From positions 1 through 64,000 of the forward strand of contig CAVTBV010000010.1 of NCBI GenBank assembly GCA_963733095.1: a stretch of 64,000 nucleotides of DNA. Reading direction: 5' to 3'. Within the stretch, counting starts at the first letter, position 1, and each line of letters opens with the position of its first letter. The notes under the pieces were generated by a model that ran no database searches, had not been told where the DNA came from, and saw only the letters and a program-made list of their open reading frames with translations. Source of the DNA: Candidatus Bathyarchaeota archaeon. GTDB lineage: Archaea > Thermoproteota > Bathyarchaeia > Bathyarchaeales > Bathycorpusculaceae. This document shows, in pieces, positions 9,901 to 47,061 of this stretch. A program made the translations under genes and the position numbers.

Positions 9901-9924
9901 TCACACAAAGTTCTAGATTCTTGT

Positions 9925-20686: not shown

Positions 20687-21376
20687 TCAGGGAATCATGA
20701 AAAGGACAAAGGCTAATTCGTCAAAAATAATGTGTGAGACCATGACTGGAAAAAGATTTTTACCAATCTTGTTAAACGTGAAGCTCCAAGCTAAGCCGAC
20801 AATAAATGCCACTAACATAAGTGACGGGTTAAACGTTGGCAAATGTATCATTGTATACAGAAAGCTGGTCAGAACAGCCGCAGCCCAGGGCTTAAACCGC
20901 ATGTCAAGGTGCTTAAGGATGAAGCCCTGCCAATACGTCGCCTCACCAAGACCTATCGGGAACAACAAAAGCCCTGCGATTGCCCAGAGAGGGAAATTTC
21001 CGCGAAAGGAGTAAACCGATGACACTTGAGAGGGAAACCCGGGTATAGAGTTAGCGATTTGGGCACCAAAATAGAAGAGCGCAAAAAGGGCAAGACCCAA
21101 AGCGGCTCCGATGACAAAACCACGTATTGTCGGTTGGAACTTGATTTTACGAATTCTAGGCACAGAGACGACTAAGAGTATTCCAGTTGAGAGGGCTAGC
21201 GTTGGCCAAAAACCGAAAGGCGGCTCAGTAAAAGTGATTACCCACAATATGAATGGCAGAGGAAGAGTCAACAGTTCGTAGTTGTGCCTTATTCTGTCGA
21301 AAGTTGAAGTTGCATGATTTTCAGGTGAGACATTGCATTTCGTTGGTTTTTCGGTCGTCGTCATTGTTTCCATCAC
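20687..21376 (-). CDS. CPBP/Abi (CAAX-like) intramembrane protein
   Basis: GEATYWQG (degenerate EExxFRG), YTMIH, SHIIFD; multi-TM; 22 bp downstream of menA. Confidence 0.75.
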   Translation of the reverse strand: MMETMTTTEKPTKCNVSPENHATSTFDRIRHNYELLTLPLPFILWVITFTEPPFGFWPTLALSTGILLVVSVPRIRKIKFQPTIRGFVIGAALGLALFALFYFGAQIANSIPGFPSQVSSVYSFRGNFPLWAIAGLLLFPIGLGEATYWQGFILKHLDMRFKPWAAAVLTSFLYTMIHLPTFNPSLMLVAFIVGLAWSFTFNKIGKNLFPVMVSHIIFDELAFVLFMIP

Positions 21377-21398
21377 GTGAAAGAAGCTTAACCTAGGT

Positions 21399-22415
21399 TT
21401 AATGAGGTTTCTTACCGTAAGCGATTTTCTTGAATAGTAAGAAAGTCAAAACTGTGCAGATGACCACTGAGGATAGAACCCCGATGAACCCGATAGTTAA
21501 GGGAGCAAAAACGCTCAACACGTACCCCAGCACCAGCAAGATGCCTGTAAATAGATGCACAACTATTGTAAGGGCGTTGGAGAGAGCAAGCTGTAAAGAA
21601 CTTGAATGGAACTGCCTTGCGTTCGAGATCGATTTCACTGACAAAGGTAACGTTACCAAGGCAATCAGGGTGTAAGCAGGAATAATCTGCAACAAGACAG
21701 CTACCAAGATAGCGATGTAAGTGGCATACATCATGCCTGCATAAACAACAGAAGCTTTTTCTCTACCGAGCCTGACAACCCACGTATTCTTTCCCACAGC
21801 TTTATCAGAACTGTAGTCCTGAAAAGCGTTTATGTACAGAATAGCGGTTATCAGAAGAGCAACTGGAACTGCTGCGACCAAAGGTTCGATTGATAAAGTT
21901 CCAGTTTGAACATAAAAAGCTCCAAGGGTCATGAGTAACCCAAAGTTTAATCCGACGATCGGTTCCCCTACGCCTCTCCCTGCAAGATTGAAGGGGCGAC
22001 CAGTGTAGAAATAGGCTGAAAATAAACCAATAGCAGCCAGAACCAGCATAAAGTATCCGACTACCAACGTAAAGTACAAACCTATCATGCCTGCTAGAGT
22101 GAAAAGGACCATCGCGCCCAAGAAAACTTCTCTTGGAGTGAGCAAACCTGAGGGAATAGCTCGACTTCCACCTGTGAACGGGCGTACAAACTCCTTATTT
22201 AAGGTGTCATTGCCACTCTTGTAATCGAAGTAATCGTTAACTACGTTAGCGCCTAGGTGGACAAATATACCGCCCATTAGGGCAAGGACAAAAAAGATCG
22301 GATTGAAAGCGCTGTTTCTCACCCACGAGATGACTGTACCCAAAACAATGGGAGTAATGGATCCAGTTAGAAAGGGAGCCCGCAACTCGCTAAGCCAGAC
22401 TTTCACTTTGTTCAT
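21399..22415 (-). CDS. menA: 1,4-dihydroxy-2-naphthoate prenyltransferase (UbiA family)
   Basis: RAPFLT, NVVNDYFDYKSGND, YTGRP..GVGE, INAFQDYSSDKAVGKNTWVVRLG. Confidence 0.85.
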   Translation of the reverse strand: MNKVKVWLSELRAPFLTGSITPIVLGTVISWVRNSAFNPIFFVLALMGGIFVHLGANVVNDYFDYKSGNDTLNKEFVRPFTGGSRAIPSGLLTPREVFLGAMVLFTLAGMIGLYFTLVVGYFMLVLAAIGLFSAYFYTGRPFNLAGRGVGEPIVGLNFGLLMTLGAFYVQTGTLSIEPLVAAVPVALLITAILYINAFQDYSSDKAVGKNTWVVRLGREKASVVYAGMMYATYIAILVAVLLQIIPAYTLIALVTLPLSVKSISNARQFHSSSLQLALSNALTIVVHLFTGILLVLGYVLSVFAPLTIGFIGVLSSVVICTVLTFLLFKKIAYGKKPH

Positions 22416-22997
22416 ACCATTTTTAAGGATGTACAGCTAAAATTAAGCCTTTTGCCAAATTTTTATTTAAATTCTCGGATTAAATTAAAAAGATACAGCG
22501 TATGACATGTTTAAACGAGAAAAATTTGCGCATATGCTTTTGAAGATCTGTTTGACGCCAAAGCGTCCAATTGAAGCTGAACTGTTTCCTTTGCTCACGT
22601 GAGAGTAAAATCTTCCAAAGCTTCATTAGGAATTGGCTTTCTTCCGAGCGTCGACACTTTTTTCTATTATTTCTTTCACAGAAGAGATCCGTTGACCAAT
22701 TTTGGGAACAGTTAGAAAACTACTATGGTTTATTCAAAAAAGCACACAACTCAATTGGATGAAAATTTAAAACAAAATCAATCTCGCAACAAAATTCTAA
22801 ACGGAGAAAAGCACGTTGGAAAAAAGAGAGGCGTACCAAGGATTAAGCATTTGAAAAAGTCTACATACTATCATAAAAATAGTATTTATAACGACAATGT
22901 TTTTAAAGAGTTGGAATACTTTATTGCTCTCCGCGCCCCTAACGTCTTTAAGTCGGTTAAGATGCTATTAATGATGAAAAGTAAGAGGAAAGGCAAG

Positions 22998-23999
22998 ATG
23001 AAACAACAATACTATGCCGAAACCGGCGTAGAAAGTTCATTTGTGAAATATTTTTCTAAAATAAAAAAAGAAGTTGAATCTGAACTATCGAAATTTGTCT
23101 TTTCTATACCACAAAAGAGCCTCAAGTCAAAAATAGAGTATACCGTTTTGTCTGGGGGCAAACGGTTCCGCCCATTTCTCGTTATTTTATCGGCAAAGAG
23201 CGTCGGCGGAAACCCAAGAACTGTAATGCCTCTTGCAATAGCCTTCGAGCTAATGCATACATCCACCTTAATCCATGATGATATAATCGACCAAGACGAA
23301 ATGCGCAGGGGTCAACCCTCACTGTACAAAAAAACGTCCATCAGCGAAGCTATACTCGCCGGAGATGCTCTAATAGCCCTTTCAGTAAGTCTAGCATCAT
23401 CATTCGGCGAGACTATACTGAAAGACGTAGCGCAAAGTGCCCTCGACCTCTGCGATGGAGAACACATGGACTTAGTAGACTCCTTAAAAACTACAACCGA
23501 ACAAGTTTATTTTGAAAAAATCAGGAAAAAATCAGCTTCTCTTTGTAAATCTGCAACATATTGTGGAGCGATAGCTGGGAAGGGATCACTTGCCGAGCAA
23601 TTGGCACTCGCTAGTTTTGGAGAGAGCTTAGGAATAGCTTATCAACTCAGAGATGACATGCTGGATTTTTCTGTAAATCACGACCTAAACTTGAAAGATC
23701 TTAGTAATGGAAGAGTCACTTTACCCCTCATCTATTGTTATGAACACAGCACTCCAGATGAGAGAAAGAAAATTGAAAAACTTCAAGCCCTCATAGGAAA
23801 AGATCCATCAAGCGCTAGCGAGAAATCAAGTGAGATAGTGCAGATTGCGCACAACAAGGGTGCATTTGAGTACTGTGAAAAGAAGGTAGATGAATATCTA
23901 ACCCAAGCTATCACAAGCGTTTCGGTACTGAAAGATACACGGTACAAAGCTTATTTAATGGAAATTGCTAGAACGCTAAGAACCTGGGAAACTGCGTAA
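22998..23999 (+). CDS. trans-polyprenyl diphosphate synthase
   Basis: GGKRFRP, FARM HDDIIDQDEMRRG, AILAGD, KSA, SARM YQLRDDMLD. Start probably near ATG 22998, not 22725. Confidence 0.9.
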   Translation: MKQQYYAETGVESSFVKYFSKIKKEVESELSKFVFSIPQKSLKSKIEYTVLSGGKRFRPFLVILSAKSVGGNPRTVMPLAIAFELMHTSTLIHDDIIDQDEMRRGQPSLYKKTSISEAILAGDALIALSVSLASSFGETILKDVAQSALDLCDGEHMDLVDSLKTTTEQVYFEKIRKKSASLCKSATYCGAIAGKGSLAEQLALASFGESLGIAYQLRDDMLDFSVNHDLNLKDLSNGRVTLPLIYCYEHSTPDERKKIEKLQALIGKDPSSASEKSSEIVQIAHNKGAFEYCEKKVDEYLTQAITSVSVLKDTRYKAYLMEIARTLRTWETA

Positions 24000-24170
24000 A
24001 AAGCAAACATAAGGGCTTTCTTATTGCTATAGGAGCACCAGTCCCGACTGCAATAATTGTTTCTGTTTGTTTAGGGACGGCAATCGCATGAACTAGAGCC
24101 AATTCTTGCACATAGTGGTTGTTTTATCCTTGCCTTGGCTGAAAGTGGGTTTCTCCACATAGGTGAAAAT
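24000..24170 (+). pseudogene. 5' remnant of a second menA-like gene
   Basis: GAPVPTAIIVSVCLGTAIA*TRANS..(frameshift)FILALAESGFLHIGEN aligns to the N-terminus of intact MenA (RAPFLTGSITPIVLGTVISWVRNS..FVLALMGGIFVHLGAN). Confidence 0.55.
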
Positions 24171-24458: not shown

Positions 24459-25199
24459 TTGCCAAAAATAGAGGTCCTTCGGGCACTTTCTAACGACGTT
24501 AGGCTCGAGATCCTGAAACTCCTGTATCAAAAACCTAGGGACGTTGAAGATCTCGCAAAAAATTATTTAAAATTGCAGCCTATAACGGTACGTCATCACA
24601 TTCAATGTTTGCAAGAAGCAGGTCTTTTGGAATCTTATCAGGGAAGAACTGGTTCGGCAGGCAGACCTAAAACATATTACAAATTAGCTAAAAGCCTACC
24701 CATGATTACTTTTCCAGAAAGGCGCTACTTTGACTTATCCAAAGCAATGCTTAATAGCATTTTAATTAATGTAGGAGAAAAGAAAACTGTTAAGATACTA
24801 AGCGACGTCGGCATCAAGATGGGGAAAGAAACAGTAAAGTATCTTGCAGAAATGAACAATATAAAGCGATGGACACCTAAGGAATTTGCAGAAATTTTTG
24901 TTGGAAAATACCTCGAAGAAATCGGCACTGAACCTGAAATTATCGAAAAAAGTAGCAACTCAGTAGTCTATAAAACGCATAACTGTCTTTTCTTTGAATT
25001 GGCTCAGGAAAACCCAAGTTTGATGTGTGATGTACTCCATAACAGCTTCCACCACGCTCTTATAAAAGCTATGAGTGATAATCTTGAAGATACTCAGACA
25101 AGTTGCATGGGGCACGGCAACAATTGTTGTGAACATACCGTTGAATGGGTTCTAATAAATAAAAAACCGATAGAAAATGATAATAAAGTAAAATCTTAG
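24459..25199 (+). CDS. ArsR-type HTH regulator with a C-terminal V4R-like Cys-containing domain
   Basis: ALSNDVRLEIL, TVRHH..L.EAGL, GRPKTYY; HNCLF..MCD..CMGHG..CCEH. Confidence 0.85.
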   Translation: MPKIEVLRALSNDVRLEILKLLYQKPRDVEDLAKNYLKLQPITVRHHIQCLQEAGLLESYQGRTGSAGRPKTYYKLAKSLPMITFPERRYFDLSKAMLNSILINVGEKKTVKILSDVGIKMGKETVKYLAEMNNIKRWTPKEFAEIFVGKYLEEIGTEPEIIEKSSNSVVYKTHNCLFFELAQENPSLMCDVLHNSFHHALIKAMSDNLEDTQTSCMGHGNNCCEHTVEWVLINKKPIENDNKVKS

Positions 25200-25972: not shown

Positions 25973-26599
25973 ATGGTAGTACCATATGACAATTTAGACA
26001 GTATGATGTGGACTGTTGGATTAAGCGCTGCAATAATTGGGATTTTGCTGTTGAAAATTCGCTATGACTCAAAAACACAAACAATCGAAGACTCTACTGT
26101 TAGGGACCGAATAGGCTACATACTGACCTTAGGCGGAGGCGGACTATATCTCTTAGTGTCTGGGCTTTACATATATTTCACATGGCCTTTTGGAAGCCCG
26201 TATGGGTCGCAGTTTACAACTGGTTACGTTGGAGGCTACAACAACGTGCTCTTTGGAGGAGTTGCAACAATGGGCGGTCTGCTGCTTATCATGGTTGCTT
26301 TGGCATTGTACTTCAATGGAGGCTTCAAGATGATATCTTACTTCGGTGTCGGTGTGGGGTTCTACGCATTAGCTGGAGCTGCTGCAATCTTGGTTAACAT
26401 GTATGGAAAAACACCCATACCATCTGCATTAGGCTACATCGGTTTAGCTGCTGCCGCGTTCTTCATTGTACCCGTTGCCCACTCGAATAACAAAAATTTC
26501 CGTTACCTCGCTGCACTCTTCGCATTCCTGTTTGCTGCTGTCTGGTTATTCGAAGGATTCAATACCACAATGTCACATCTGGGCGCACCAGTAATGTAA
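25973..26599 (+). CDS. DUF981-like membrane protein
   Basis: GLY..FTWP....YNNVLFG motif, about 6 TMs, terminal His; GAGG RBS. Confidence 0.7.
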   Translation: MVVPYDNLDSMMWTVGLSAAIIGILLLKIRYDSKTQTIEDSTVRDRIGYILTLGGGGLYLLVSGLYIYFTWPFGSPYGSQFTTGYVGGYNNVLFGGVATMGGLLLIMVALALYFNGGFKMISYFGVGVGFYALAGAAAILVNMYGKTPIPSALGYIGLAAAAFFIVPVAHSNNKNFRYLAALFAFLFAAVWLFEGFNTTMSHLGAPVM

Positions 26600-26788
26600 T
26601 AAAAGGCAAATAAAGAAACTGAATATCGACTCCGCCTAATTAGCGGAACACCTATCTTTTTATTTTTTGTATACAAATTAAGAAGTTTCAACTCGTAAGT
26701 TGCCGCCCAAATTCATTTTAAAGCCGCAATATATACGAACATATTTACAGATTGAAATACCAGATCGCTTCCGTTAGAAAGGTAGATC

Positions 26789-27480
26789 GTGGAAGAAAAG
26801 AATTCGTATCAAACTCTGTCAAGTAAATCACATCTCGATATTCTGAAGCTCTTTTACAAGAAAGATCAGAGTATTGAGCAGATTGCAGAAACACTTAATC
26901 TACAACCGATTAATATTAGTCATCACTTGAAGTCCTTGGAAGAAGCTGGGCTCATCGAAAAAAAGATGAACATCAAGTTTAGCTGGAAGACCAAAAACTC
27001 TTTACTGAATAGTTAAAAGGAAAAAGATAGTAGGGTTCCCAAAGAAACGCTATCTTACCCTACTAAGCTTCTTAATTAGCACTTTAGAATTTACCGCTGG
27101 AGCAAAAAACGCAAAAAAGTTGCTTAGCCGCGTTGGAAAAGTTATAGGAAAAGACGTCATAAAAGATCTAGAAACGAGAAATGAAATCAAACAATGGGCA
27201 TAAGAATACGTACAGTTTTTCATCAAAAACTATCTGGAGGAATCTGTAGCCGAGCCAGAGATTATCGAAGTCGCAGACAAAAAATTGTTTACCGGCTACA
27301 CAATTGCTTATTCTTCGAGTTAGCACTCAAAATGCCTGACATGATGTGCGACGTAATACATGACACATTCCACAACTGAGTCCAAGATGCCATGTCAAAA
27401 AATATCAAAACCACGAGAATTACCTGCATGAGGAAGGCGACGATTATTGCGAATATGTCTGGAGTGGGTCAATCCAGAGT
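26789..27480 (+). pseudogene. Frameshifted paralog of the ArsR-V4R regulator
   Basis: Fragments LSSKSHLDILKLFY..LQPINISHHL, FPKKRY, EPEIIE, YRLHNCLFFELALKMPDMMCDVIH match 24459-25199 across several frames and stops. Confidence 0.8.
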
Positions 27481-27636
27481 CTTCAACTTAATTTCAATCT
27501 AACAACCATTTTAGTGCGTGCCAAAAATTGTCTAAATAACTCAAAAAGACCCTTTCCATTCCTTAATAAGGAAAAACGACAAACAAACAATAAAGCAAAT
27601 TTAAATCCGTTTTCTAAAGAGCAATAGCAATGAATC

Positions 27637-28722
27637 CTATCGTTTTTTCTCAGCGAAGACTTTTTCACCGCGAATTTTTTTTCTCATAGCCATTTCAATT
27701 ACTTTTTTCAAAGCATCTTCGGTGTCAGTTTCTTCTAAGTAACCTTGGCGGATGGCCAGATTTATCAGTCTTTGAGCTACTTGACTTCGAACCAGCATGG
27801 TTGTGTAGCCTTCAGGGGAACCTATGCCGCCAACAGATATGTCTGCACTGTAATTGGAGAAGTCAGTGCACGCTAAGCATGAAGGACGTACGATGGGACC
27901 AAGGGCATCTAAATCTACATGTTCAACTTTCCCATTCGTCAGTTTAACGATAAAGTCTTCCTTAAGGTTGATTTTTTCAATCTGATCCAAGCTTGCCCCG
28001 ATCTTCCTCGCCAGAAACTTTGCCCCATCTTCATTCATAAAGAAATTCTCAAAACAAAACAGTCCCATTGTAAAGGCGACAATGTGACTTGGGACAATGT
28101 GAAGCAGCTGCATCTTCCGTATAGTGGATATTTGACAAGGAGTCCCCACCACGGCAAGCTTCGTGACATCTAATTCGTCGGATTTTTTGAGGGCGCGGAA
28201 CACTGAAGCGTACGTTGTCAAATCGCCTAGGTCTCTGATACTTTTAGACTGAGCAAGACTTGAGCCAGCGCACTTGAGTAGGTCGCCGAAGTCCATTGCT
28301 ATCATAGGTTCGTTGTTCCACGAGCTCTCCTTTTTCGAGAGAACTGCACCGTCGATTTTGCGGGAATCCAGCATGAATTCAAGAAGACCTGTAACTGCAC
28401 CGCCATCGCAGCAGACTTGGGCAATTTCGCTGTTTGTCGTGCGGAGGCTTCGGATAGCGACATAGGAGCCAATGGGTTCTTCATACTGGTATTTTGTTTT
28501 CAGCGCCTTGTCTAAGTCAGATGTTCGGGGGCAGATAAGATAGCAGATACCGTCATCTAGGCAGTTTCCTTCGTCACAGTAGACGGGCTTTTCATTTTCA
28601 ATCGAGAGAACGTTTAGCTCGTTTGCTGTGCAGAAGCTTACGCATCCGTAGCATGCGGCGCAGATGCCTGGTTCAATCACTTCTTTTCGAAGGGTACGAA
28701 AGGACAGCCTTTCATGGGTCAT
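27637..28722 (-). CDS. Coenzyme F420 hydrogenase/dehydrogenase beta subunit (FrhB/FpoF family) with an N-terminal ferredoxin
   Basis: CAACYGCVSFC..CLDDGICYLICP, DGGAVT, VGTPCQI, GLFCFENF, CLACTDF..ADISVGGIGS. Confidence 0.88.
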   Translation of the reverse strand: MTHERLSFRTLRKEVIEPGICAACYGCVSFCTANELNVLSIENEKPVYCDEGNCLDDGICYLICPRTSDLDKALKTKYQYEEPIGSYVAIRSLRTTNSEIAQVCCDGGAVTGLLEFMLDSRKIDGAVLSKKESSWNNEPMIAMDFGDLLKCAGSSLAQSKSIRDLGDLTTYASVFRALKKSDELDVTKLAVVGTPCQISTIRKMQLLHIVPSHIVAFTMGLFCFENFFMNEDGAKFLARKIGASLDQIEKINLKEDFIVKLTNGKVEHVDLDALGPIVRPSCLACTDFSNYSADISVGGIGSPEGYTTMLVRSQVAQRLINLAIRQGYLEETDTEDALKKVIEMAMRKKIRGEKVFAEKKR

Positions 28723-38236: not shown

Positions 38237-38237
38237 T

Positions 38238-39791
38238 TTAGATCAATCCTTGAAAGTTGCTGAAGAACTTTGTTAGAGGGTCGATGAAGATGCCTGGGAA
38301 GAAGAACAGCAAGACACCGACCACAGCAATTATTACGATCGGTATCAAGATTGCCTTATCAATTTTAAAATTATGAATTTCTGGTTGATCAGGTGATGGT
38401 TGACCGAAGAAGATGCGTCTCATTGTGACAAAGGCATATCCAGTTGATAGCCCGATAGCAACTATCAAGCCAATAACCAGAAGTATGAAACTGACTGACC
38501 CCAGGGCTTGGGCTCTGTTTACCGCACCGAAGACAATCATGACTTCACTCCAAAATCCAAGCGACGGAGGAATACCCGTTATCTGCATGAAGCCTAGAAG
38601 CGCCAAAGCCCCTGCTATGGGTAGTTTGACTGCCAAACCCCCCATCTTGCTGATGCTTCGCAAGCCGTTGAACTTGATAATGAGAAGCCCAGCTACGGAG
38701 AATAAAATTGCCTTGCCTACTGCATGGGTTACGTACTGAAGCATGGCTCCGGACATGCCAATGGTAGTCATGCTGGCAACGCCTAAAAGTAGGTAACCCA
38801 TTTGAGAGATGCTGGAGTATGCGAGCATTCTCTTAAAGTCATCCTGAGCTAGAGACATAAGACCGCCATAGATCATGGTGATTAAAGCAAGAACCATGAG
38901 ATAAACGGAAGCATCTGAGAGAACACTTGGAAACATGATAAAGACGACTCTGACAAGTGCGTATCCTCCGATTCCTATTAGACAAGGGGACAGAAGGGCT
39001 GAAACAGGTGTCGGAGATTCAGCATGGGCATAAGGTAGCCAGATGTGAACTCCAAAGACAGCCATCTTGATGAACAGCCCAATCATTATGGCTAGAGCTG
39101 CAAAGATTAGAATGGAGCTTGGCAACATAGTCCACAGAGACGTGTTAAACGTTAAGGTTTGTACGTTAAATATGTCAAAAGTCCCTGTATAGTAACCGAA
39201 AGTTAAAGATCCAATTAGGAAGAGCAGAGCACCGACGTGAGTCCAAATGAAGTACATGAAGGCAATTCTTTCGCGTTTTCCATACCCATAAAACATGATT
39301 AACAAAAAACTTGGAACCAAAGTTAGCTCCAAGAAGATGTAGAATTCAAGCAGATTTGTGGATAGTGTTATGCCTAGCATCGCCGCTGAGAACATTACAT
39401 ACAGCATGTAGTAGGTACCCCAGGAGGGTTCCTTGGAATTTTCCTTTTCCATTTCTTCAAAGCGATGCTTCATGTAAGGTACCGAGTAAAGAGAGATCAT
39501 AGTAGTTACCAGAGCGATTGAAAAAGCGATAGGACCACTTAGAGCATCAAGTAACATCGAAAATGAGCCAATGCGAGCGCTACTGAAGTAGACGGGATCT
39601 ATTACGCCCACACCTAATCCTGGAGCGAATAGAGAAATGGTAACTATAACTAGCGGATAAGCAAGCAGAAGAGTGCTTATAGTTGCCAGTGTTTTCGGCG
39701 CAACTTTTCGCCCAATTACAGGTAAGAGAAAAGCCGCTACAAGAGGAATGATAACAGCTGAAAGCAAGATTGGCTGACTTAACTCAATCAT
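38238..39791 (-). CDS. nuoM: Complex I subunit M
   Basis: FYIFLE, KMAVFGVHIWLPYAHAESPTPVS, KRMLAYSSISQMG, GFWSE. Confidence 0.92.
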   Translation of the reverse strand: MIELSQPILLSAVIIPLVAAFLLPVIGRKVAPKTLATISTLLLAYPLVIVTISLFAPGLGVGVIDPVYFSSARIGSFSMLLDALSGPIAFSIALVTTMISLYSVPYMKHRFEEMEKENSKEPSWGTYYMLYVMFSAAMLGITLSTNLLEFYIFLELTLVPSFLLIMFYGYGKRERIAFMYFIWTHVGALLFLIGSLTFGYYTGTFDIFNVQTLTFNTSLWTMLPSSILIFAALAIMIGLFIKMAVFGVHIWLPYAHAESPTPVSALLSPCLIGIGGYALVRVVFIMFPSVLSDASVYLMVLALITMIYGGLMSLAQDDFKRMLAYSSISQMGYLLLGVASMTTIGMSGAMLQYVTHAVGKAILFSVAGLLIIKFNGLRSISKMGGLAVKLPIAGALALLGFMQITGIPPSLGFWSEVMIVFGAVNRAQALGSVSFILLVIGLIVAIGLSTGYAFVTMRRIFFGQPSPDQPEIHNFKIDKAILIPIVIIAVVGVLLFFFPGIFIDPLTKFFSNFQGLI

Positions 39792-39792
39792 T

Positions 39793-40098
39793 TTAGCCTT
39801 TAGACTCCTTTAGTTCATAAACATCTGAACGTCTCTTGATACGATACATCAGCAGTGCAATGGAAACTAGAATTCCTACGTCAGCAACTGCGATTCCTGT
39901 AGCGATAACGGCAACAACTTCACCAGTAGCTGGCGAAGTTGATTGAGAAGCAAGTGCAACTAGTGCTAACATTGCAGCGTTGAAGTTGATCTCTGCGGCT
40001 AGCAACATTCGCAGCATGGTTCTTTTTGATATAATCCCGTACATGCCGATAGCGAATAAGATTGCAGATAATGTTAAGAAAAGAACAATTATGTCCAT
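39793..40098 (-). CDS. nuoK: Complex I subunit K
   Basis: LFAIGMYG, AEINFNA; 3 TMs. Confidence 0.9.
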   Translation of the reverse strand: MDIIVLFLTLSAILFAIGMYGIISKRTMLRMLLAAEINFNAAMLALVALASQSTSPATGEVVAVIATGIAVADVGILVSIALLMYRIKRRSDVYELKESKG

Positions 40099-40607
40099 TA
40101 TTGGTCCTCCTCCTTGCGGGCTATTGTTATAGCTTCAATCAAAGTTGTAATTAGAGCCAAAGCGGCTATTAGCAGGGCGAAACCATATTTTTGAGTCAAC
40201 AAGCTAGCGAGGTCCCTGAAACTAGTATACGAAAGCTGAAGCCCACTAGAAAAATGTAAGCCAAACCCTAGGGCGAGCAAGACTGCAACAAGTATTACAG
40301 AAACTAACGCAACTATGCGGACAGGAGTTTCAACTTTGGGAGCTTCCTCAAACATTGTCACTGAAAAGAGTATGAAAGTTACAGCTGCCCCGATGTAAAC
40401 TGAGACAAAAAATAGTGCGATGAAGGTAAAACCAAGTAACACGAAAAGCGCTGCATTTGCCATGCCCAATATGGCTAAGAAAACGACTGAGTATGTGAGT
40501 GATTTGTGCTCAACGACTAATATTGCGGAAATGACAGCAACAGCTGCAAGGAGAAGAAATAGTACGGTACCTGCATTAATGACAAGGGCAATATCAAGTG
40601 CTATCAT
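40098..40607 (-). CDS. nuoJ: Complex I subunit J
   Basis: VYIGA motif, about 5 TMs, operon position. Confidence 0.85.
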   Translation of the reverse strand: MIALDIALVINAGTVLFLLLAAVAVISAILVVEHKSLTYSVVFLAILGMANAALFVLLGFTFIALFFVSVYIGAAVTFILFSVTMFEEAPKVETPVRIVALVSVILVAVLLALGFGLHFSSGLQLSYTSFRDLASLLTQKYGFALLIAALALITTLIEAITIARKEEDQ

Positions 40608-41073
40608 ATTTTAACCCTCTCTTTTCATCAAACACAGGCTTCACCTTTCTTGGTTCTTCCTCAACAGGCGGGCCTTTTACGAATTCCTGCGGCTTCTGCA
40701 GTTGTTCATTAAGGCTATAGTAAGCTTTGTCGTGAATTGGGCTGAGTTCCAAGGCATTAACAGGGCAAATGTCTCGGCAGAAACCGCAGAAAATACACCT
40801 TTGATAATTTATTCCAGGATATTTTTTAGAATCAGATTTATACATTTTTATGGCTCCAGACGGGCAAATGCGGGCGCACATAGTGCAGCTTATGCATCGG
40901 TCATCATACCATTTGAGCATTCCACGGTAGTTGCAACCCAAGTCTTGGGATACTTCTGGAAACATCAGGGTTGCCCGAGGAAAGAATAGGTACTTTATTC
41001 CCATCCACGTGGCTTCAAGGTAACCAATAACGTCCATTCCTAACAGTTTCCGACGGTTTTTAGGTTTGGCCAT
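40594..41073 (-). CDS. nuoI: Complex I subunit I (2x[4Fe-4S])
   Basis: YRG..CISCTMCARICP..CIFCGFCRDICP. Confidence 0.92.
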   Translation of the reverse strand: MAKPKNRRKLLGMDVIGYLEATWMGIKYLFFPRATLMFPEVSQDLGCNYRGMLKWYDDRCISCTMCARICPSGAIKMYKSDSKKYPGINYQRCIFCGFCRDICPVNALELSPIHDKAYYSLNEQLQKPQEFVKGPPVEEEPRKVKPVFDEKRGLKYDST

Positions 41074-42111
41074 TTAGAGCACCCCCAGTCCGACTAAGAC
41101 AAGAGAAAGAATCACTGATAGTATAGACAGCACAAAAAGTCTATGCCATCCAAGTTTCAATGCCTGGTCAATGCGGAACCTGCCAAAAACAGTTCTCATG
41201 AAAACAGCTAAAGCCATAACTACCCCAGCTTTAATCAACACAACGAGTCCGGACAATATCGGGCTAGCATTTATTGGCCAAATTAGAGGGTTCCAACCGC
41301 CTAAAAACACTTCAGAGAAGAATAAGCTATACACATAGAGTTTGATGTAAGGTGCACCTAAACAGAATATGAAGAATATTCCGCTATATTCAGTGTAGGG
41401 ACCAACTACAATTTCGCTTTCTGCTTCAGAAATATCAAAAGGAAAACGTGACGAAGTCATGAGCAAAGCGCCAAAGAATACAACTGCCGCCAAGGGATTT
41501 ATAATGAACCCCCACTCAATGCCGGTCTGCTGTTGCACAATTTGAATCAAGCTTAAGCTATTATACGCAACAGCCATAGCAAGAACAGATAGGAACATTG
41601 GAATTTCATAGCTCATAACCAAGTATCCTTCTCGCAGACTGCCTATGAATGAATACTTGTTGTTACTTGACCAACCGATAATAATGACCACAAGGGGAGC
41701 CAGCGTTGCTAACGTAGGTACCAAGAGCATTGTTAGGTCGCTATGAACTGCCGCGTAGGTGCTGCTGATAGGTATAGCCACAACGGGCAACAATGTTAAA
41801 GTAAAGAGCATAATTGGAGCAATAACGAAGACTTTCTTGTCAGAAGCTCTTGGAATGATGAACTCTTGAAAGAGATACCTAATCAGATCAGCCATCAGCT
41901 GTATGACCCCGCCTAAAGGTTTCAAGATATAGTAGGGACCATAACGCATCTGGACTTTCGCTGTAAGTTTCCTTTCAAACCATATCAACCCTAGAAGAAC
42001 TATCAATACCGTTATCAAACCAGGGAAAATAAGTGGAATAAAAAATGCCGGTGAAATAATGAAATGCCATATAGTTAGAATTATTTGCCAAATAGTTGCA
42101 ATTGGATCCAT
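41074..42111 (-). CDS. nuoH: Complex I subunit H
   Basis: ERKLTAKVQMRYGP, SNNKYSFIG..SYE, RFPFDISEAESE, RFRIDQ. Confidence 0.93.
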   Translation of the reverse strand: MDPIATIWQIILTIWHFIISPAFFIPLIFPGLITVLIVLLGLIWFERKLTAKVQMRYGPYYILKPLGGVIQLMADLIRYLFQEFIIPRASDKKVFVIAPIMLFTLTLLPVVAIPISSTYAAVHSDLTMLLVPTLATLAPLVVIIIGWSSNNKYSFIGSLREGYLVMSYEIPMFLSVLAMAVAYNSLSLIQIVQQQTGIEWGFIINPLAAVVFFGALLMTSSRFPFDISEAESEIVVGPYTEYSGIFFIFCLGAPYIKLYVYSLFFSEVFLGGWNPLIWPINASPILSGLVVLIKAGVVMALAVFMRTVFGRFRIDQALKLGWHRLFVLSILSVILSLVLVGLGVL

Positions 42112-43278
42112 TTACCTGTCAGCCTCCGGTGGGAAATAGTCCAGACTACCATAGACCGCAGGTGCGTCAGCCAGTCTTTGACCTATGAGCGCCGCCTTGT
42201 AACCCGCGACATTTTTAAATGAAGGGGTGATCATACGCAACCGGTAAGGTTGAGGGCTTCCATCACTGACAATGTAATAGAAAAGCTCGCCGCGGCTTGC
42301 TTCAACTCGGGAAATTGCTGTTCCTTTTGCAGGTTTTAAAGCCGTAAACAATGCAGGGAATCTGAGAATACCTGTTTGGTCAACAAGTTCCTTCATCTTT
42401 GGATTAATAGTTTTCATGTATTTATCAGCGAAGTATGGACCATCAGGAATTTTGTCAAGGATTTGCCTTACAATTCTGATGCTTTGTTTCATTTCTTCTC
42501 GTCTAACAAGAAGCCGAGCGTAACAGTCTCCTGCCTCTTCGGTAATAAGATCAAAGTCTATTTCGTTGTAGGCGCAGTAAGGCTCTATTTTTCTGACATC
42601 ATAAGGAACGCCTGAACCTCTCAGGTTGGGACCTACAATACCGATTTTTGCTGCTTCAGTTTTGGAGATAACTCCTACTCCTTTTAGACGGGCAATGGTA
42701 ACTGGATTATTAACAAAGAGTTTATCGTAGTCTATCAGGCGCTTTTCGAAGTAACTGAAAACTTTAAGCACGTTGTTTTTAAAATCAGCAGGGAAATTTC
42801 GCCTTACACCTCCTGGAACAATGTAAGCATATGTTAATCTGGCACCTGTCAATTGCTGTGACAGTTCCAAAAAGGGCTCTCTATCCTGAAAAGCCCATTC
42901 AAACATGGTTGAAGAGCCGATCATGTTTCCGAAAATGCCAAGACCGTAAAGGTGACTATGGATTCTATTAAGTTCACACAATAACATCCGCAGGTATTGA
43001 GCTCTAGGAGGAACTTCAACATCCAACAATTTCTCCAAAGCTAAAATATAACCTAAGTTATGGTTTGACGAATCTGCCAGTGCAGGCCTTTCTACAAGCG
43101 GAATTATTTGCAGGTAAGTTTTTGTTTCAGCTATTTTTTCAACTGCGCGATGAACATAACCTATGTTAGGTTCAAACCTTATGATAATGTCGCCGTCCAC
43201 TTCAGCAATGAGCCTCATGTGACCCGAGCCAGGGTGCTGCGGACCAATTAAGAGTTCAACTGTTTCGCCACCACTCAA
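42112..43278 (-). CDS. nuoD: Complex I subunit D (no NiFe ligands)
   Basis: GPQHP, GYVHR, ELNRIHSHL, GPNLRGSG, C-terminal SLDYFPPEADR; no CxxC. Confidence 0.92.
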   Translation of the reverse strand: MSGGETVELLIGPQHPGSGHMRLIAEVDGDIIIRFEPNIGYVHRAVEKIAETKTYLQIIPLVERPALADSSNHNLGYILALEKLLDVEVPPRAQYLRMLLCELNRIHSHLYGLGIFGNMIGSSTMFEWAFQDREPFLELSQQLTGARLTYAYIVPGGVRRNFPADFKNNVLKVFSYFEKRLIDYDKLFVNNPVTIARLKGVGVISKTEAAKIGIVGPNLRGSGVPYDVRKIEPYCAYNEIDFDLITEEAGDCYARLLVRREEMKQSIRIVRQILDKIPDGPYFADKYMKTINPKMKELVDQTGILRFPALFTALKPAKGTAISRVEASRGELFYYIVSDGSPQPYRLRMITPSFKNVAGYKAALIGQRLADAPAVYGSLDYFPPEADR

Positions 43279-43724
43279 GCGTCGATCCCCTCTGTTTTTA
43301 GTTTAAAGTCTTTCCTTAGCGGAGGGCCCCCTTCGAAGTTGTCCATAAGAAAAAGCCGTCCTTTTAGAGGCAATCCCTCGAACGTAACCCCCATTAGATC
43401 TAATGTTTCTCGCTCAGGGTATTCAGCGCTAGGCCAGATGTCAATCACTGACGCTATTTTTGGGTCTTGGCGATCAATAGATGCCCTTAGCTCAAAAATA
43501 AACGTGACTAGTTCAGCGTTCAAAAATGACGAAATGTGGTAAACGATATCTATCTTCTTTTCTTGTGGTAGGTCGATAGCAGTTACTGACTTAACATGAT
43601 CAAACCCTATAGAATCCAATTTATTTGCAACTTCCAGAATTTTTAAACGATCTACAGTTGCCGATAGACAGGTTGGAGACAATACGTTTATTTCGCTAAC
43701 AAGGCCGTTAAGCTCAACAGACAT
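43275..43724 (-). CDS. nuoC: Complex I subunit C
   Basis: VTAID, ERETLDLMGVTFEG, PLRKDF. Confidence 0.9.
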   Translation of the reverse strand: MSVELNGLVSEINVLSPTCLSATVDRLKILEVANKLDSIGFDHVKSVTAIDLPQEKKIDIVYHISSFLNAELVTFIFELRASIDRQDPKIASVIDIWPSAEYPERETLDLMGVTFEGLPLKGRLFLMDNFEGGPPLRKDFKLKTEGIDA

Positions 43725-43740
43725 CTTAGTTACTAATTCA

Positions 43741-44262
43741 TCAATTTCCAGGATAAGGTGTCCCTCTTTTCCGTATTTTACGCTGGGTCATAATTATTCC
43801 CCGCAGAACACCTTCAGGTCTTGGGGGGCAACCTATAATGAAAGTATCTACTGGTAAAATTTCATGGGATCTAACTATATTGTAGCTGTTCCAGAAGATA
43901 CCGCCGTCAATAGCACATGCGCCCATGGCAATAACGAACTTTGGCTCTGGCATCTGTTGATAGACAACTTTGGCTGCTTCACCCATCTTCTTTGTTAATG
44001 TTCCTTCTATGAATATTACGTTACATTGTCGTGTGCCAACAAACGGAAGAGCCCCGAATCTTTCAGCGTCGTATCTAGGTGCGAAGGCTGCTGCGAATTC
44101 CGCTCCACAACATGCAGTCGTGAAATGAACTGGCCAAAGAGAGTAAGATATACCCCAGTTTCGAATGGAGCTAAATGGCTTTCGCTCCATAAGCTTCCGC
44201 AAGGCTTTTTCGAAGGACAGTATAGGTGTTTTTATTTTTTGGTTTCTCTCCTCATTGTCCAT
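43741..44262 (-). CDS. nuoB: Complex I subunit B
   Basis: ACCGAE, DAERFG, PKFVIAMGAC..GG, GCPPRPE. Confidence 0.93.
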   Translation of the reverse strand: MDNEERNQKIKTPILSFEKALRKLMERKPFSSIRNWGISYSLWPVHFTTACCGAEFAAAFAPRYDAERFGALPFVGTRQCNVIFIEGTLTKKMGEAAKVVYQQMPEPKFVIAMGACAIDGGIFWNSYNIVRSHEILPVDTFIIGCPPRPEGVLRGIIMTQRKIRKRGTPYPGN

Positions 44263-44636
44263 AATCCAACCTTCCTCGCTGAGTCGAGGCCAAAGATAAT
44301 TGGCGGAACAAGCATCGCTAAAATGGCGCCGAACAACTCTACTGTTGGCGCGAACGCTTGATGAGCATCCATGAGCAGCAGAAACCAGTAGATAAAAATT
44401 GGCTCTACGGTTAAAAAGACAACTAGGTAAGCATAATACTGCATAGCAAGGTGGCCTCTTTCATAGGAAGTAGAAGGCTTGTTACCACAGTCAAACTGCT
44501 CATTTTTGAGGGGCAACGATTTAGGCGGTGCCACAGTGCGGCTTATAGCGAAGCCGATAGCACCGAAGCCGATACCCCCAGCCAGCGCCAAAATAAAGGC
44601 GATTAGAGTACTCGGATCAACTACAAGTGTTGACAT
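44232..44636 (-). CDS. nuoA: Complex I subunit A
   Basis: K..QFDCGN, QYY, FLTVE; GGAGGT RBS before ATG 44636. Confidence 0.88.
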   Translation of the reverse strand: MSTLVVDPSTLIAFILALAGGIGFGAIGFAISRTVAPPKSLPLKNEQFDCGNKPSTSYERGHLAMQYYAYLVVFLTVEPIFIYWFLLLMDAHQAFAPTVELFGAILAMLVPPIIFGLDSARKVGLWTMRRETKK

Positions 44637-45021
44637 TGTTAATACCTCCACATATTAAGCTACATGCTAAACCTATCGAAAGCACGATGAATACATAGTC
44701 ATTAAAGGCTTTGACCCCAGTCAACCCTTCTCATCCCCTTATCTGAAACTTAATTAGCTATTAAATTTCGCCCTACCAGCCTAATATGTATTTTGGATTA
44801 TTATTATGAATATTTTAGTAAAAAACATAGTTATTTTTAACGCATTAATTTTAATTTCTGTCTTTAAACGAGACTTAAAAGTGCCGATGACCCCAAAAAA
44901 AATGTTATTTCCCAAAATTATGCCAAAATGCTTTCATTTCTGAGCCCGAAACCTTTTTTGTCACCTCATTGTCATATTTTAAAGAAATGCAAATTTCCCA
45001 CCATTCGGTGAACAACACAAG

Positions 45022-46203
45022 ATGACCGCAGTCGAAAATCAGCAAGCTATTTCTCGTTACCGTTGGACAGTGTTGTTAGCTTCTCTGTTTGCTTTTATAA
45101 TGTATGCGTATTCTCTTCAATCTGTGCCGCCTCTGCTACAGCAATTTCAAGGTATTTTCGGTATAAATGCTGCGACGGCTGGGCTCTTGATGTCTATGGC
45201 CGTTATTCCAGGGATTGTTTTAGCATTGCCAGCAGGAATACTAATTGGCAAGTACAGCTTCCGAAAAATAGGATTCTTGTCAACTTTGACGATTGGCATT
45301 GGCAGCTTGATCATGGCGCTTTCATCAAGCTTTCCAGTGGCCCTGTTGGGACGATTCACAATAGGCTTAGGAGGCGGCTTGCTTTCGGTTGGGACGCCGT
45401 CGATTGTTCCGCAATGGTTTGAGCACAAGGAAATGGGAAGAGCTATGAGTGTTTATGCAGTAGGAATGCCTGTAGGAACGGTAGCGGCATTTTTCACCAC
45501 GCCAATCATAGCTCAAAGTTTTGGTTGGCAATCTCTGTTCTATGTGGGAGCTTTAGTTTCAACACTATCTGCCATATTTTTCTGGGCAATTGTGAGAGAT
45601 GGCCCACTAAAAGGCGATTCAACAGCTAAACTTTCAGATGCTTGGCAAACGCTGACCAAACGTGAAGTCTGGAAAGCGAGCCTCATTTGGATGTTCTTTA
45701 ACATGGTTGCAATTGGGTTTCTAACATGGGCACCTGATCTTTTCGTTACGTTCAAGAGCCTCACACTGGTGAACGCAAGCATTTTTTCGAGTCTAATAAT
45801 GATTTCAATCTTCTTTTTTATTCCCATTTTCGGGTACGCTTCAGATAGGTCGGGAAGACGTAAACCCTTCATAGTCGCCAGTATGACGCTTATGGCGCTA
45901 AGTCTCTACGCTACCACTTATTTGAATGGCGTATCTCTGGCGGCTTCTATCATAATTCTTGGCGCAGTAGCCGCAGGTGTACCACCTCTTGTTATGGCAG
46001 TAACAGCTCAGACTCTACCTCCAAGATTGGCTGGTATGGGCTTTGGTACCGTAACGTTCTGGCAAAACGTAGGAATAGCGCTGATAGCTCCGATAGTGGG
46101 ATACCTTCTAGAAATCACGCGTTCTTTGTCATTGACTTTTCTGGGACTGTCTATTTTTGCGTTGATTGGTGCTATAGTAGCTTTAACGCTTCGCTCGAGA
46201 TAA
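45022..46203 (+). CDS. MFS transporter
   Basis: About 12 TMs, GRFTIGLG, WF..KEMGRA, GYASDRSGRRK. Confidence 0.88.
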   Translation: MTAVENQQAISRYRWTVLLASLFAFIMYAYSLQSVPPLLQQFQGIFGINAATAGLLMSMAVIPGIVLALPAGILIGKYSFRKIGFLSTLTIGIGSLIMALSSSFPVALLGRFTIGLGGGLLSVGTPSIVPQWFEHKEMGRAMSVYAVGMPVGTVAAFFTTPIIAQSFGWQSLFYVGALVSTLSAIFFWAIVRDGPLKGDSTAKLSDAWQTLTKREVWKASLIWMFFNMVAIGFLTWAPDLFVTFKSLTLVNASIFSSLIMISIFFFIPIFGYASDRSGRRKPFIVASMTLMALSLYATTYLNGVSLAASIIILGAVAAGVPPLVMAVTAQTLPPRLAGMGFGTVTFWQNVGIALIAPIVGYLLEITRSLSLTFLGLSIFALIGAIVALTLRSR

Positions 46204-46353
46204 AATGCTCTTTGTTTGAAGTTCCTTACTGTATCTTTGCATAGCTGGCCTTGAGGTTCGTTTGAAAGGCAGACAAAAAATTATTTCAAAAGATAAAATT
46301 TTTGGAGGTTTCTGTAATGCTTAGGGTCAAAATATTGTTGTAAAGTTCTGCTG

Positions 46354-47061
46354 CTATTTTGTAGCCATGTATAATCCAACAATTCCAAAAGAAAGCGGTT
46401 TAAAAGCCTCATCAGTAAAACCTGCGCTCTTGAACATCGACAAAATGTCTTTGGGGACGGGAAAGTTAGCTGCCGATTTTCCAAGATATTTGTAGGCTGG
46501 CTTCCCTCCAGATACCCATCCTCCAACAAGAGGAACGATTCTTAAGCAATAGAAACGGAATAAGCTTCTAATAAGACGGTTTTTTGGCTGACTAGTTTCA
46601 ACGCACGTGAACTTTCCATGCCTTTTAAGCGTTCTCGTTACCTCTTTCAAGTATGCGATAGCCTTAGGATTCCTGTAAATGAGGTTCCGAAAAGAAAAGG
46701 AAATTTTTACGGTATCTACAGATTCATTTTTCAATGGCAAATAAGCGGCATCCGCAATGACAAACGCAAAATTATCCCTGCCTGCCCATTTGCTCTTGGA
46801 TTTCTTAGCGATTGCTTTTGACAACATTTCTTTGCTAAAGTCAAGACCTAATAAGAATGAATCATCATCGAGGTTCTGCATAAGGCTGAAAGAGAGATCG
46901 CCCGTCCCACAGCAAAGGTCAACTACAAAATGTCCATCGGCAGATTCTTTGGCGCAAGCTTTGCGCCAACGCTTATCTAAACCGAATGTCAAAACCTTAT
47001 TGGATAAATCGTAAGTTTCTGCCACTGTGGAGAACATGGGTTTAAGCATAACACTATGCAT
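46354..47061 (-). CDS. ubiE: Demethylmenaquinone/ubiquinone methyltransferase (UbiE/MenG)
   Basis: F..VA..YD.SN..L.FG.D..WR, VDLCCGTGD, DFS..ML, DA..LP, F.FRN, Y.YL..S...FP. Confidence 0.88.
   Translation of the reverse strand: MHSVMLKPMFSTVAETYDLSNKVLTFGLDKRWRKACAKESADGHFVVDLCCGTGDLSFSLMQNLDDDSFLLGLDFSKEMLSKAIAKKSKSKWAGRDNFAFVIADAAYLPLKNESVDTVKISFSFRNLIYRNPKAIAYLKEVTRTLKRHGKFTCVETSQPKNRLIRSLFRFYCLRIVPLVGGWVSGGKPAYKYLGKSAANFPVPKDILSMFKSAGFTDEAFKPLSFGIVGLYMATK

Follow-up and report, generated by a model that had tools for sequence, protein, structure and literature searches.

A quinone-finishing gene cassette linked to a Nuo-like complex and an Hdr–FrhB operon in an accessory island of a bathyarchaeon

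The Fqo complex of Archaeoglobus and the Fpo complex of Methanosarcina are among the closest described relatives of a gene block found in a 64,000-nt stretch of DNA from Candidatus Bathyarchaeota archaeon (assembly GCA_963733095.1, contig CAVTBV010000010.1, positions 1 to 64,000; hereafter the window, to which coordinates refer unless another genome or locus is named). This block (20687–47166) carries a quinone-finishing cassette with a polyprenyl diphosphate synthase (PPS), a MenA-family prenyltransferase and a UbiE/MenG methyltransferase, together with an 11-subunit Nuo-like complex and an operon for heterodisulfide reductase (Hdr) subunits and FrhB. Like Fqo and Fpo, it combines an 11-subunit core lacking NuoEFG with a nearby FrhB/FpoF-family gene and genes for a membrane carrier of its own. 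Unlike them, its subunits score below the Fpo cut-offs and lower on Fpo than on Nuo models, its frhB lies in the hdr operon, its NuoD belongs to a clade of TACK archaea (61–65% identity to Korarchaeota) that lacks the tyrosine of the quinone-binding site (Q-site), and no head-group pathway accompanies it.

HdrA2B2C2 of Methanosarcina acetivorans is characterised as an F420H2- and ferredoxin-dependent bifurcating heterodisulfide reductase (PMC5296606). The island shares with it an HdrA–MvhD fusion (best family HdrA2, 869.5 bits), complete HdrB and HdrC and a link to F420; it differs in an HdrA score that falls short of the cut-off (1100), an operon with an additional FrhB module, a genome without McrA or a coenzyme M (CoM) marker, and a conserved linkage of the operon to PPS–MenA. 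QmoABC and FixABCX are flavoprotein complexes that tie bifurcation by HdrA-like proteins or electron-transfer flavoprotein (ETF) to the quinone pool. As in these complexes, a bifurcating flavoprotein would meet a membrane-quinone partner: one relative (G220) carries EtfAB–FixX–FixC beside the cassette, and the island HdrC matches QmoC. In contrast to them, the island hdr operon has no cytochrome b or recognised membrane subunit, and we infer its coupling to quinone.

In anaerobic methanotrophic archaea (ANME) and Korarchaeia, FrhB-family genes are co-located with hdrA and mvhD, and ferredoxin/F420 coupling has been proposed; unlike in the island, adjacency of these HdrA–FrhB/FdhB clusters to menA or a polyprenyl synthase gene is not reported in the sections cited here (PMC9012536, PMC10667645). 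Within the same class of organism, the Fpo-like 11-subunit [NiFe] hydrogenase Hfo of Bathy-6 (PMC7886697, PMC10477458) has the same 11-subunit architecture as the island Nuo complex. Hfo differs in possessing the L1 and L2 NiFe motifs, defined here as in PMC7886697, and a fused CD subunit; both motifs are missing from the island NuoD. Head-group salvage with MenA and MenG only is described for bacteria that use 1,4-dihydroxy-2-naphthoate (DHNA) (10.1101/2023.03.13.532228, PMC4746308). The island resembles DHNA salvage and UBIAD1 in joining a prenyltransferase to a methyltransferase without head-group synthesis, and uptake of a head group is a candidate function here.

Bathyarchaeia are among the most abundant archaea of anoxic sediments and soils and are modelled as fermenters or acetogens. 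The sections cited of a study of the class report none of the known quinone pathways and no identified terminal acceptor (PMC11697101), and those of a study of the cultivated Bathyarchaeum tardum state that quinones, cytochromes and terminal reductases were not evident (PMC10477458). Our search for literature on Bathyarchaeia together with menaquinone, menA or ubiE returned nothing on topic in the library used; menA or ubiE may be listed in the gene tables that supplement PMC7886697 and PMC11697101, which the search did not cover.

Recurrent linkage of the PPS–MenA cassette

Gene calls rest on a listing of open reading frames (ORFs) and on Pfam and NCBIfam profile searches with the cut-offs of the models. 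The source genome (G000; 2.84 Mb, 16 contigs, 95% complete, 2% contamination) was compared with a closed genome of the same genus (G003) and with samples of 60 other species of the genus, 101 genomes of the order, 301 genomes of the class and a 31-genome set. For the neighbourhood set, ORFs were clustered from 37 loci, namely the window and 36 others that surround HdrA orthologues. A preliminary description of the window had proposed a bathyarchaeal host, which is borne out by the nearest named HdrA records, all from Bathyarchaeota/Bathyarchaeia metagenome-assembled genomes (MAGs; 95, 94, 86% identical and downward). The genes that it listed are present with strong family matches, apart from corrections to a misassigned menA, a broken regulator and two proteins below F420-family cut-offs, which are given below.

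PPS and MenA accompany a particular type of HdrA. Where HdrA is at least 57% identical to that of the island, 19 of 36 loci carry MenA or PPS by tblastn, against 1 of 35 where HdrA is more distant; among loci of at least 15 kb the counts are 15/19 and 0/20, respectively. Beyond HdrA, HdrC and HdrB themselves, the commonest neighbours in the ORF clusters were PPS and MenA (16/37 each), then ArsR (13), FrhB (11), a 112-aa protein without family (11), a DUF2231 membrane protein (11) and DUF981 (6). Since gene order and orientation vary between loci, this proximity has been kept through rearrangements.

The same pair also accompanies the Nuo complex. Full-length matches to the island NuoD occur in four of the 301 class genomes, namely the source genome and three others at 68, 62 and 58% identity, and PPS–MenA stands directly beside this Nuo type (K-M-L-N order) in three families, represented by G000, G220 and G342; the fourth genome, G391, offers a contig of only 4.4 kb. 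The order in G220 (NuoD 68%) is EtfA-EtfB-FixX-FixC-DUF981-nuoN..A-PPS-MenA, with the quinone-binding domain of ETF:quinone oxidoreductase (ETF-QO) in FixC, and that in G342 (NuoD 58%) is MenA-ArsA-B12 radical SAM-geranylgeranyl reductase-PPS-nuoA..N. Within the genus, the G016 island reads MenA-CPBP-PPS-ArsR-DoxX-DUF7530/PNPOx-PNPOx-nuoN..A-MFS-UbiE, without hdr or frhB. MenA was present in 22 of 27 NuoD-positive genomes compared with 60 of 274 others, counts that are not phylogenetically independent, as a single family accounts for 23 of the 27. Both nuo and hdr–frhB adjoin the cassette in G000 and in loci L004 and L005, and in 10 further loci, whose fetched flanks (up to 10 kb) contain no nuo genes, frhB again comes after hdrB. 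Because linkage to this Nuo type and to this HdrACB type recurs separately, the quinone-finishing pair is the hub. Synteny, which the preliminary description proposed to test across genomes, holds across families in a modular form: Nuo and Hdr–FrhB are modules that have joined a PPS–MenA(–UbiE–DUF981) cassette independently.

Within the window, the gene at 21399–22415 (minus strand) belongs to the MenA family by predicted fold, family score and motifs. It matched the UbiA-superfamily domain (PF01040, 125.7 bits) and passed TIGR00751 (111.9 against 102.15), with narrower MenA equivalogs (NF004749 and others) below their cut-offs. MenA proteins carry Asp-rich motifs of an NDxxDxxxD-like form and of the form DxxxD. 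Both are intact here (NDYFDYKSGND and QDYSSD) and align with the motifs of UBIAD1, the best solved relative (79.8 bits). UBIAD1 makes menaquinone-4 by prenylating a head group that is provided to it. The gene is single copy in the source genome. The adjacent ORF at 20687–21376 (minus strand) does not encode MenA but an Rce1-like CAAX/CPBP intramembrane protease (PF02517, 48.6 bits); this protease gene adjoins MenA in G000, G016 and G137.

The PPS gene (22725–23999, plus strand) scored 183 bits on PF00348 over residues 131–367. Its ORF begins with a basic extension of ~100 aa (22725–23030) lacking in homologues; as their median length is 337 aa, this part is probably untranslated, and the true start codon probably lies near residue 81–92. 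A DUF981 membrane protein (25973–26599, plus strand; PF06168, 77 bits; ~5 transmembrane segments, no Cys), missing from the preliminary list, accompanies the PPS–MenA pair across loci; its look-up against a clustered protein atlas returned only other DUF981 clusters. The UbiE/MenG C-methyltransferase (46354–47061, minus strand; PF01209, 157.7 bits) passed its subfamily cut-off (TIGR01934, 195.4 against 158.35) and forms the right end of the block common to G016.

Related loci carry further genes of interest. In G220 (L096, contig C13), EtfA, EtfB, FixX and FixC/ETF-QO at 5235–9422 constitute a second bifurcating-type enzyme on the same cassette; tblastn found no Etf/FixABCX match in the source genome. 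Other quinone-type neighbours in relatives are UbiE, DoxX, Pro_dh, DUF420 with a multihaem cytochrome, ETF-QO and geranylgeranyl reductase. In L009 (15–22 kb), L012 and L014 (HdrA 74–75%), an hdr–frhB(–PPS–ArsR) cluster, with no PPS match in L012, continues into DUF420, DUF2231, a PKD protein with one CxxCH motif, a membrane-anchored multihaem cytochrome c and a CcmF-like gene, which hints at extracellular electron transfer in these lineages. The multihaem cytochromes, DUF2231 and DUF420 of these loci have no match in the source genome. Locus L055, filed as Acidiferrales, contains HdrA, DUF2096, Pro_dh, HdrACB, ArsR, PPS, MenA, DUF981 and UbiE in an order and with identities like those of L026, and is probably a mis-binned archaeal contig. 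Among loci with a distant HdrA, PPS and a MenA-like gene occur together only in one from a Treponema MAG (L061; HdrA 43%; hdrB-hdrA-PPS-MenA).

The Hdr–FrhB operon and the Nuo-like complex

The operon hdrA(mvhD)-hdrC-hdrB-frhB lies on the minus strand, and successive genes overlap by 4–11 nt. It begins with hdrA fused to mvhD (30213–32600; HdrA2 type; PF02662 at residues 656–774; NF040770, 869.5 bits against 1100), followed by hdrC (29609–30223; Fer4 families, 2x[4Fe-4S]; TIGR03290, 80.5 against 160), hdrB (28719–29612; PF02754 twice; TIGR03288, 257 against 345) and the frhB/fpoF-family gene for an F420-type module (27637–28722; PF04432 and PF04422; NF006807, 177 bits). HdrA, HdrC and HdrB show the expected domains, including two complete CCG domains with 10 Cys in HdrB, yet none of the three reaches its curated equivalog cut-off. 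In FrhB, the cysteines of the N-terminal 2x[4Fe-4S] domain are invariant in 10 orthologues; the best PDB match of FrhB, over the full length, is 8rja_E (163 bits), followed among FrhB-type chains by 8riu_B. Entries 8rja and 8riu are both mentioned in a study of an ethane oxidiser that couples F420 reduction to CO2 generation (PMC11493965). Complex prediction of FrhB with HdrA residues 560–795 gave scores of 0.01 and 0.19, where the mark is 0.32, with controls absent, and speaks neither for nor against an interaction.

Two further sets of related genes occur on another contig of the source genome. At G000:C6:24369–28252, genes for VhuG- and VhuA-like [NiFe] hydrogenase subunits come after a canonical hdrC–hdrB pair, and at G000:C6:87284–90684 a polyferredoxin gene precedes an HdrA2-like gene (1064 bits against the cut-off of 1100).

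The preliminary description had FpoF/FqoF feeding a headless complex I. In this arrangement, FrhB would dock to the Nuo complex to form an F420H2:menaquinone oxidoreductase like Fqo of Archaeoglobus, and HdrABC would be a separate soluble bifurcase reducing ferredoxin and heterodisulfide. The architecture of FrhB is indeed FpoF-like, with an N-terminal 2x[4Fe-4S] domain before the FrhB core, and the FpoF model aligns to residues 14–345, but with 109 bits it stays far from its cut-off of 475, and the Fpo subunit models all score under the Nuo models. Adjacency of nuo and hdr–frhB in G000, L004 and L005 would fit such docking, as would the presence of CofD and CofE, and in Methanosarcina fpoF is unlinked to fpo. 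Against this, frhB closes the hdr operon, with a 4-nt overlap that couples it translationally to hdrB and not to nuo; it follows hdrB in the 10 nuo-less loci, G016, G220 and G342 have nuo and men genes with no frhB adjacent, and the source genome has no CoM marker, McrA or 7,8-didemethyl-8-hydroxy-5-deazariboflavin (FO) synthase. Since FrhB belongs to the hdr operon, feeding of complex I by FpoF is not what the gene anatomy indicates, and we regard an Fqo-like assembly as unlikely.

The 11 subunits listed for the Nuo complex in the preliminary description are confirmed. Pfam and NCBIfam place eleven genes in one minus-strand operon (34733–44651): nuoA (44232–44651), nuoB (43741–44262), nuoC (43275–43724), nuoD (42112–43278), nuoH (41074–42111), nuoI (40594–41073), nuoJ (40098–40607), nuoK (39793–40098), nuoM (38238–39791), nuoL (36179–38236) and nuoN (34733–36178). 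No NuoEFG was found by Pfam in the operon or the window, and the rest of the genome was not searched for these subunits. Nuo equivalog cut-offs were passed by D (475 against 360 bits), H (352 against 305), L, M, B and K, while A, C, I, J and N had Nuo top matches below them; all Fpo models stayed below theirs (FpoD 325 against 600, FpoH 222 against 475, FpoL 278 against 1050, FpoF 109 against 475).

The island NuoD lacks the NiFe L1 and L2 motifs, its only cysteines being at 101, 235 and 252, so the complex is not an Hfo hydrogenase. As a positive control, the fused NuoCD of G003, in an 11-subunit cluster, displays both L1 (CGICNSIH) and L2 (DPCFSCTDR). A ~42%-identical NuoD-like gene in ~527-aa frames occurs in 53 of the 60 genus genomes; the source genome has no second such complex and no genus-typical Hfo cluster, and G016 has both types. 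The island Nuo thus replaces the Hfo hydrogenase typical of the genus in G000. Its nearest named homologues by NuoD are from Bathyarchaeia (80%), Korarchaeota (61–65%) and Nitrososphaerota MAGs (63–65%), followed by Methanomethylicota (59%) and Thermofilum and Infirmifilum (55%).

A proposed electron-transport module

With moderate confidence, we read the block as an accessory membrane electron-transport module in which a head group, salvaged or supplied by a route other than the known ones, would be prenylated and methylated, a Nuo pump would take the place of Hfo, and an F420-linked Hdr would act on the same carrier pool. The data show the identities of the genes, how the operons are built, the island and the linkage that recurs; substrates, direction of electron flow and terminal sink we infer as follows. 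The cassette would consist of PPS, the MenA-family prenyltransferase, UbiE/MenG and DUF981, and the major facilitator superfamily (MFS) transporter may belong to it. Its head group might be taken up, as by UBIAD1 and DHNA-salvaging bacteria. Two kinds of redox machine would have joined it independently. The 11-subunit Nuo of TACK-archaeal type would most likely oxidise reduced ferredoxin and deliver electrons to the membrane carrier while pumping ions. In HdrA2(MvhD)–HdrC–HdrB–FrhB, F420 would be oxidised or reduced at FrhB and electrons bifurcated at HdrA, and the high-potential leg at HdrB would most likely be coupled to the quinone pool or to a thiol equilibrating with it. The membrane-anchored and soluble PNPOx proteins are candidate flavin/deazaflavin-dependent quinone reductases, and candidate electron sinks are fumarate via SdhAB, or external acceptors.

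Numerous results weigh against this interpretation, beginning with the head group. Family searches found no MenD or MenB in the 95%-complete source genome, tblastn with queries from a bathyarchaeal men operon found no MenC, MenD, MenH or MenB there, with a 33%-identical chorismate-family protein as the only match to MenF, and MqnA/D (PF02621) was detected neither in the source genome nor in 31 relatives nor in the 301 class genomes. As neither known naphthoquinone route is encoded, the head group would have to be taken up or made by an unknown route. The earlier claim that the island brings its own quinone-finishing genes stands for PPS, MenA and UbiE, whose linkage recurs across families, in a genome that has no Men or Mqn head-group genes. 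Cofactor F420 presents a similar picture. CofH was not found in the source genome and CofG exceeded its cut-off in none of 31 genomes, including two closed ones, and because FO synthase is absent, F420 use would depend on imported FO. The source genome does encode CofD (351 bits), CofE (303 bits) and a second FrhB-like gene, and CofD is over its cut-off in 22 of the 31 genomes, including 16 of the 18 others of the same genus (partial or split in the remaining two). CofD and CofE without FO synthase point to FO salvage or an unknown FO route. A host lacking F420 and quinones, which the preliminary description named as a case that would refute it, is partly borne out by the missing Men, Mqn and FO synthase genes, although CofD and CofE are present.

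Terminal acceptors are equally elusive. Searches of the source genome found no cytochrome bd, haem-copper oxidase, molybdopterin oxidoreductase or NarI/HdrE-type cytochrome b and no ORF with at least two CxxCH motifs. A quinol-oxidising reductase, for which the preliminary description suggested looking beyond the window, has as its only candidates SdhA (769 bits against 727) and SdhB, which lie together with aspartate ammonia-lyase on contig 7 with no anchor gene beside them. Since SdhA exceeds its cut-off in 26 of the 61 genus genomes, some of them without the island (among the positives are G003, G014 and G148), SdhAB was rejected as an island-specific terminal reductase.

For the Hdr module, HdrB scores higher on the CoB–CoM HdrB model than on an SdhE-type CCG anchor model (257 against 207 bits), and neither HdrB nor HdrC has transmembrane segments. 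A gene check for CoM in the source genome found neither ComD, which one of 31 relatives has above the cut-off, nor McrA; coenzyme B genes were not searched. Without a CoM marker or McrA, a classical heterodisulfide is unlikely. Weak hints of quinone chemistry may be seen in the matches of HdrB to the SdhE-type model, where the genome's second, Mvh-linked HdrB reaches 167 bits, and of HdrC to the QmoC model (60 bits). The PNPOx proteins fall short of F420-PPOX cut-offs: the gene at 34081–34668 scores 52 against 85.6 (TIGR04023) and that at 32868–34088 scores 28 against 125.

As for the Nuo complex, the Q-site motif of complex I, DRLDY, reads ERPAL in the island NuoD, replacing Tyr by Leu, and a His loop is one residue shorter. 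The tyrosine column is L, I or V in all 121 aligned clade members (0/121 Tyr), and MBS of Pyrococcus, a relative that does not use quinone, matches almost equally (258 against 272–298 bits). The missing tyrosine and the shorter loop cast doubt on quinone reduction by this Nuo type, and of the "proton-pumping quinone reduction" first proposed, the 11-subunit, non-hydrogenase Nuo stands and the quinone step is in question. The complex could instead be quinone-free, passing ferredoxin electrons to an Hdr- or sulfur-type acceptor while pumping, like an Fpo-like complex that has been proposed for Methanomassiliicoccales or like MBS of Pyrococcus, with the MenA product serving another purpose, for example as an antioxidant or lipid. 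The source genome has no terminal quinol oxidase, hdr adjoins nuo in G000, L004 and L005, and the closest named NuoD relatives include anaerobes such as Korarchaeum and Thermofilum, all of which would suit such a complex. Its neighbours tell otherwise: Nuo lies beside PPS–MenA in three families, two of which (G220, G342) have no hdr nearby, an ETF:quinone oxidoreductase with its quinone-binding domain adjoins nuo in G220, G016 has nuo and men without hdr, and in the window UbiE and MFS flank nuoA. We therefore consider a quinone-free complex improbable.

That members of the MenA family can act on quinones in this class is suggested by their wider distribution. MenA-family genes occur in 82 of the 301 class genomes, and in a genus of another family (g118; L105, G330:C1:50000–69999) positions 2785–11382 encode MenC, MenF, MenD, MenH, a CoA-transferase, MenB and MenA, every Men model being over its cut-off. 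Because this complete classical men operon ends in a MenA homologue, a known quinone pathway exists in the class and the MenA family makes menaquinone there.

The proposed electron-transport module also admits a bolder and rather doubtful form. The HdrA2(MvhD)–HdrC–HdrB–FrhB of this clade might be a bifurcase whose acceptor is the prenylquinone from PPS–MenA–UbiE and not a CoM–CoB disulfide, with the ferredoxin driving Nuo and the head group scavenged. The reaction proposed is 2 F420H2 + ferredoxin(ox) + quinone -> 2 F420 + ferredoxin(red) + quinol, which would make the enzyme an Hdr counterpart of FixABCX.

Variable region, neighbouring genes and implications

The block lies within a segment of ~40 kb that is absent from G003. 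Window positions 329–9835 and tRNA-Cys(GCA) (9925–9998, plus strand; ARAGORN, Rfam; matching stretch 9869–10008) correspond to G003 466717–476889, and the next match starts at window position 50057, at G003 479789, and is colinear to 485008. The flanks are thus 2.9 kb apart in G003, the 2.9 kb containing two unrelated ORFs, compared with ~40 kb in the source genome, where the specific segment (10009–50056) begins directly 3' of the tRNA gene, its left edge. Of the 60 further species sampled from the genus, only G016 and G137 have a MenA orthologue (88% identical), and only G016 has a NuoD orthologue (93%); the remaining 58 have no orthologues of the block, and MenA homologues were found in 9 of the 101 genomes of the order. 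In G016 the block occupies another site, 121 kb from the homologue of the left flank of the window, and its homology to the window stops at 47166, ~100 bp past UbiE. Gene content differs between G000, G016 and G137. No integrase or transposase was matched by Pfam in the window, no att-like direct repeat, 13 bp or longer, of the tRNA region was found, window positions 9800–21000 contain no tandem repeats, and the GC content of the region is unremarkable. The region is a variable hot spot and not a demonstrable integrative element, and the block behaves as an accessory island. The accessory block at tRNA-Cys, absent from 58 of 60 species, bears out the island of the preliminary description.

That unrelated neighbours merely accumulated at this variable region by a tRNA gene, without forming a module, is very improbable: the hot spot does hold other cargo (a protease, a permease and ORFs without family), its content varies among the three genomes and its intergenic regions share no operator motif, yet the same pairings recur in differing gene orders, families and contexts far above the control rate. 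The motif search in seven intergenic regions returned two 9-mers (four counting both strands), each in three regions, which is no signal against shuffles (mean 0.95, maximum 8).

Several genes of the block stand between or beside the two operons and the cassette. An intact ArsR-family helix-turn-helix regulator with a Cys-rich C-terminal domain (24459–25199, plus strand; PF01022 and PF14196) recurs in 13 of the 37 compared loci. A second paralogue (approximately 26786–27500, plus strand; tblastn and stop-to-stop ORFs), 29% identical to the first and intact in L004 and L005, is broken over at least four frames and is either a pseudogene or an assembly error; of the "redox-type regulators" initially listed, one is therefore intact. 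The MFS transporter (45022–46203, plus strand; PF07690, 159 bits), divergent from nuoA and beside nuoA and UbiE also in G016, has aromatic-acid symporters among its best subfamily matches, all below cut-off.

The two genes previously annotated as FDORs encode PNPOx-like split barrels that do not reach the F420-PPOX family cut-offs. One is a membrane-anchored protein (32868–34088, plus strand, divergent from hdrA) with DUF7530, ~5 transmembrane segments and the split barrel; the other is soluble (34081–34668, plus strand; PF01243, 51 bits), with weak PDB matches only. Reduction of menaquinone with F420H2 by FDOR-A is known from mycobacteria (PMC8498797). A PNPOx–MenA fusion that would have linked the FDORs to MenA was rejected. 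Two MenA homologues, P0118 and P0116, have N-terminal extensions in which PNPOx_N scored 26.4 and 22.5 against the Pfam cut-off of 28.1; BLASTP revealed no similarity of these homologues to the FDOR of the window (E 23 and 0.28), and they are a weak lead only.

The left part of the variable region (10009–20600) contains a papain-like protease (11651–12643), an amino-acid permease (17627–19219) and several ORFs without family, and short stretches in 10169–10875 match many places in G016 (contigs 4, 5 and 6) in the manner of a dispersed repeat. A second small insertion specific to the source genome (54558–56829), with a 632-aa ORF (54842–56740) without Pfam match, splits prefoldin and eIF6, which are contiguous in G003. 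Upstream of the tRNA gene, a conserved amino-acid catabolism block (400–9836) encodes a branched-chain amino-acid ABC transporter, an AMP-forming ligase, indolepyruvate/2-oxoacid:ferredoxin oxidoreductase subunits and a 4HBT thioesterase, and is a plausible source of reduced ferredoxin. Words sampled from the sequence occurred in a wetland metagenome (X1, share 0.52) and with small shares in two more DNA runs; no RNA run was among the matches listed, and we draw no conclusion on habitat or expression.

Overall, the trait moves within the genus as an accessory block, and the linkage of cassette and Hdr indicates a possible quinone-coupled Hdr. MenA in 82 of 301 genomes, at least one genus with a full men operon, and a cassette wired repeatedly to a non-hydrogenase Nuo and a particular Hdr provide handles on whether and how some Bathyarchaeia respire. 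This rare block suggests that some Bathyarchaeia can respire in a manner not yet described.

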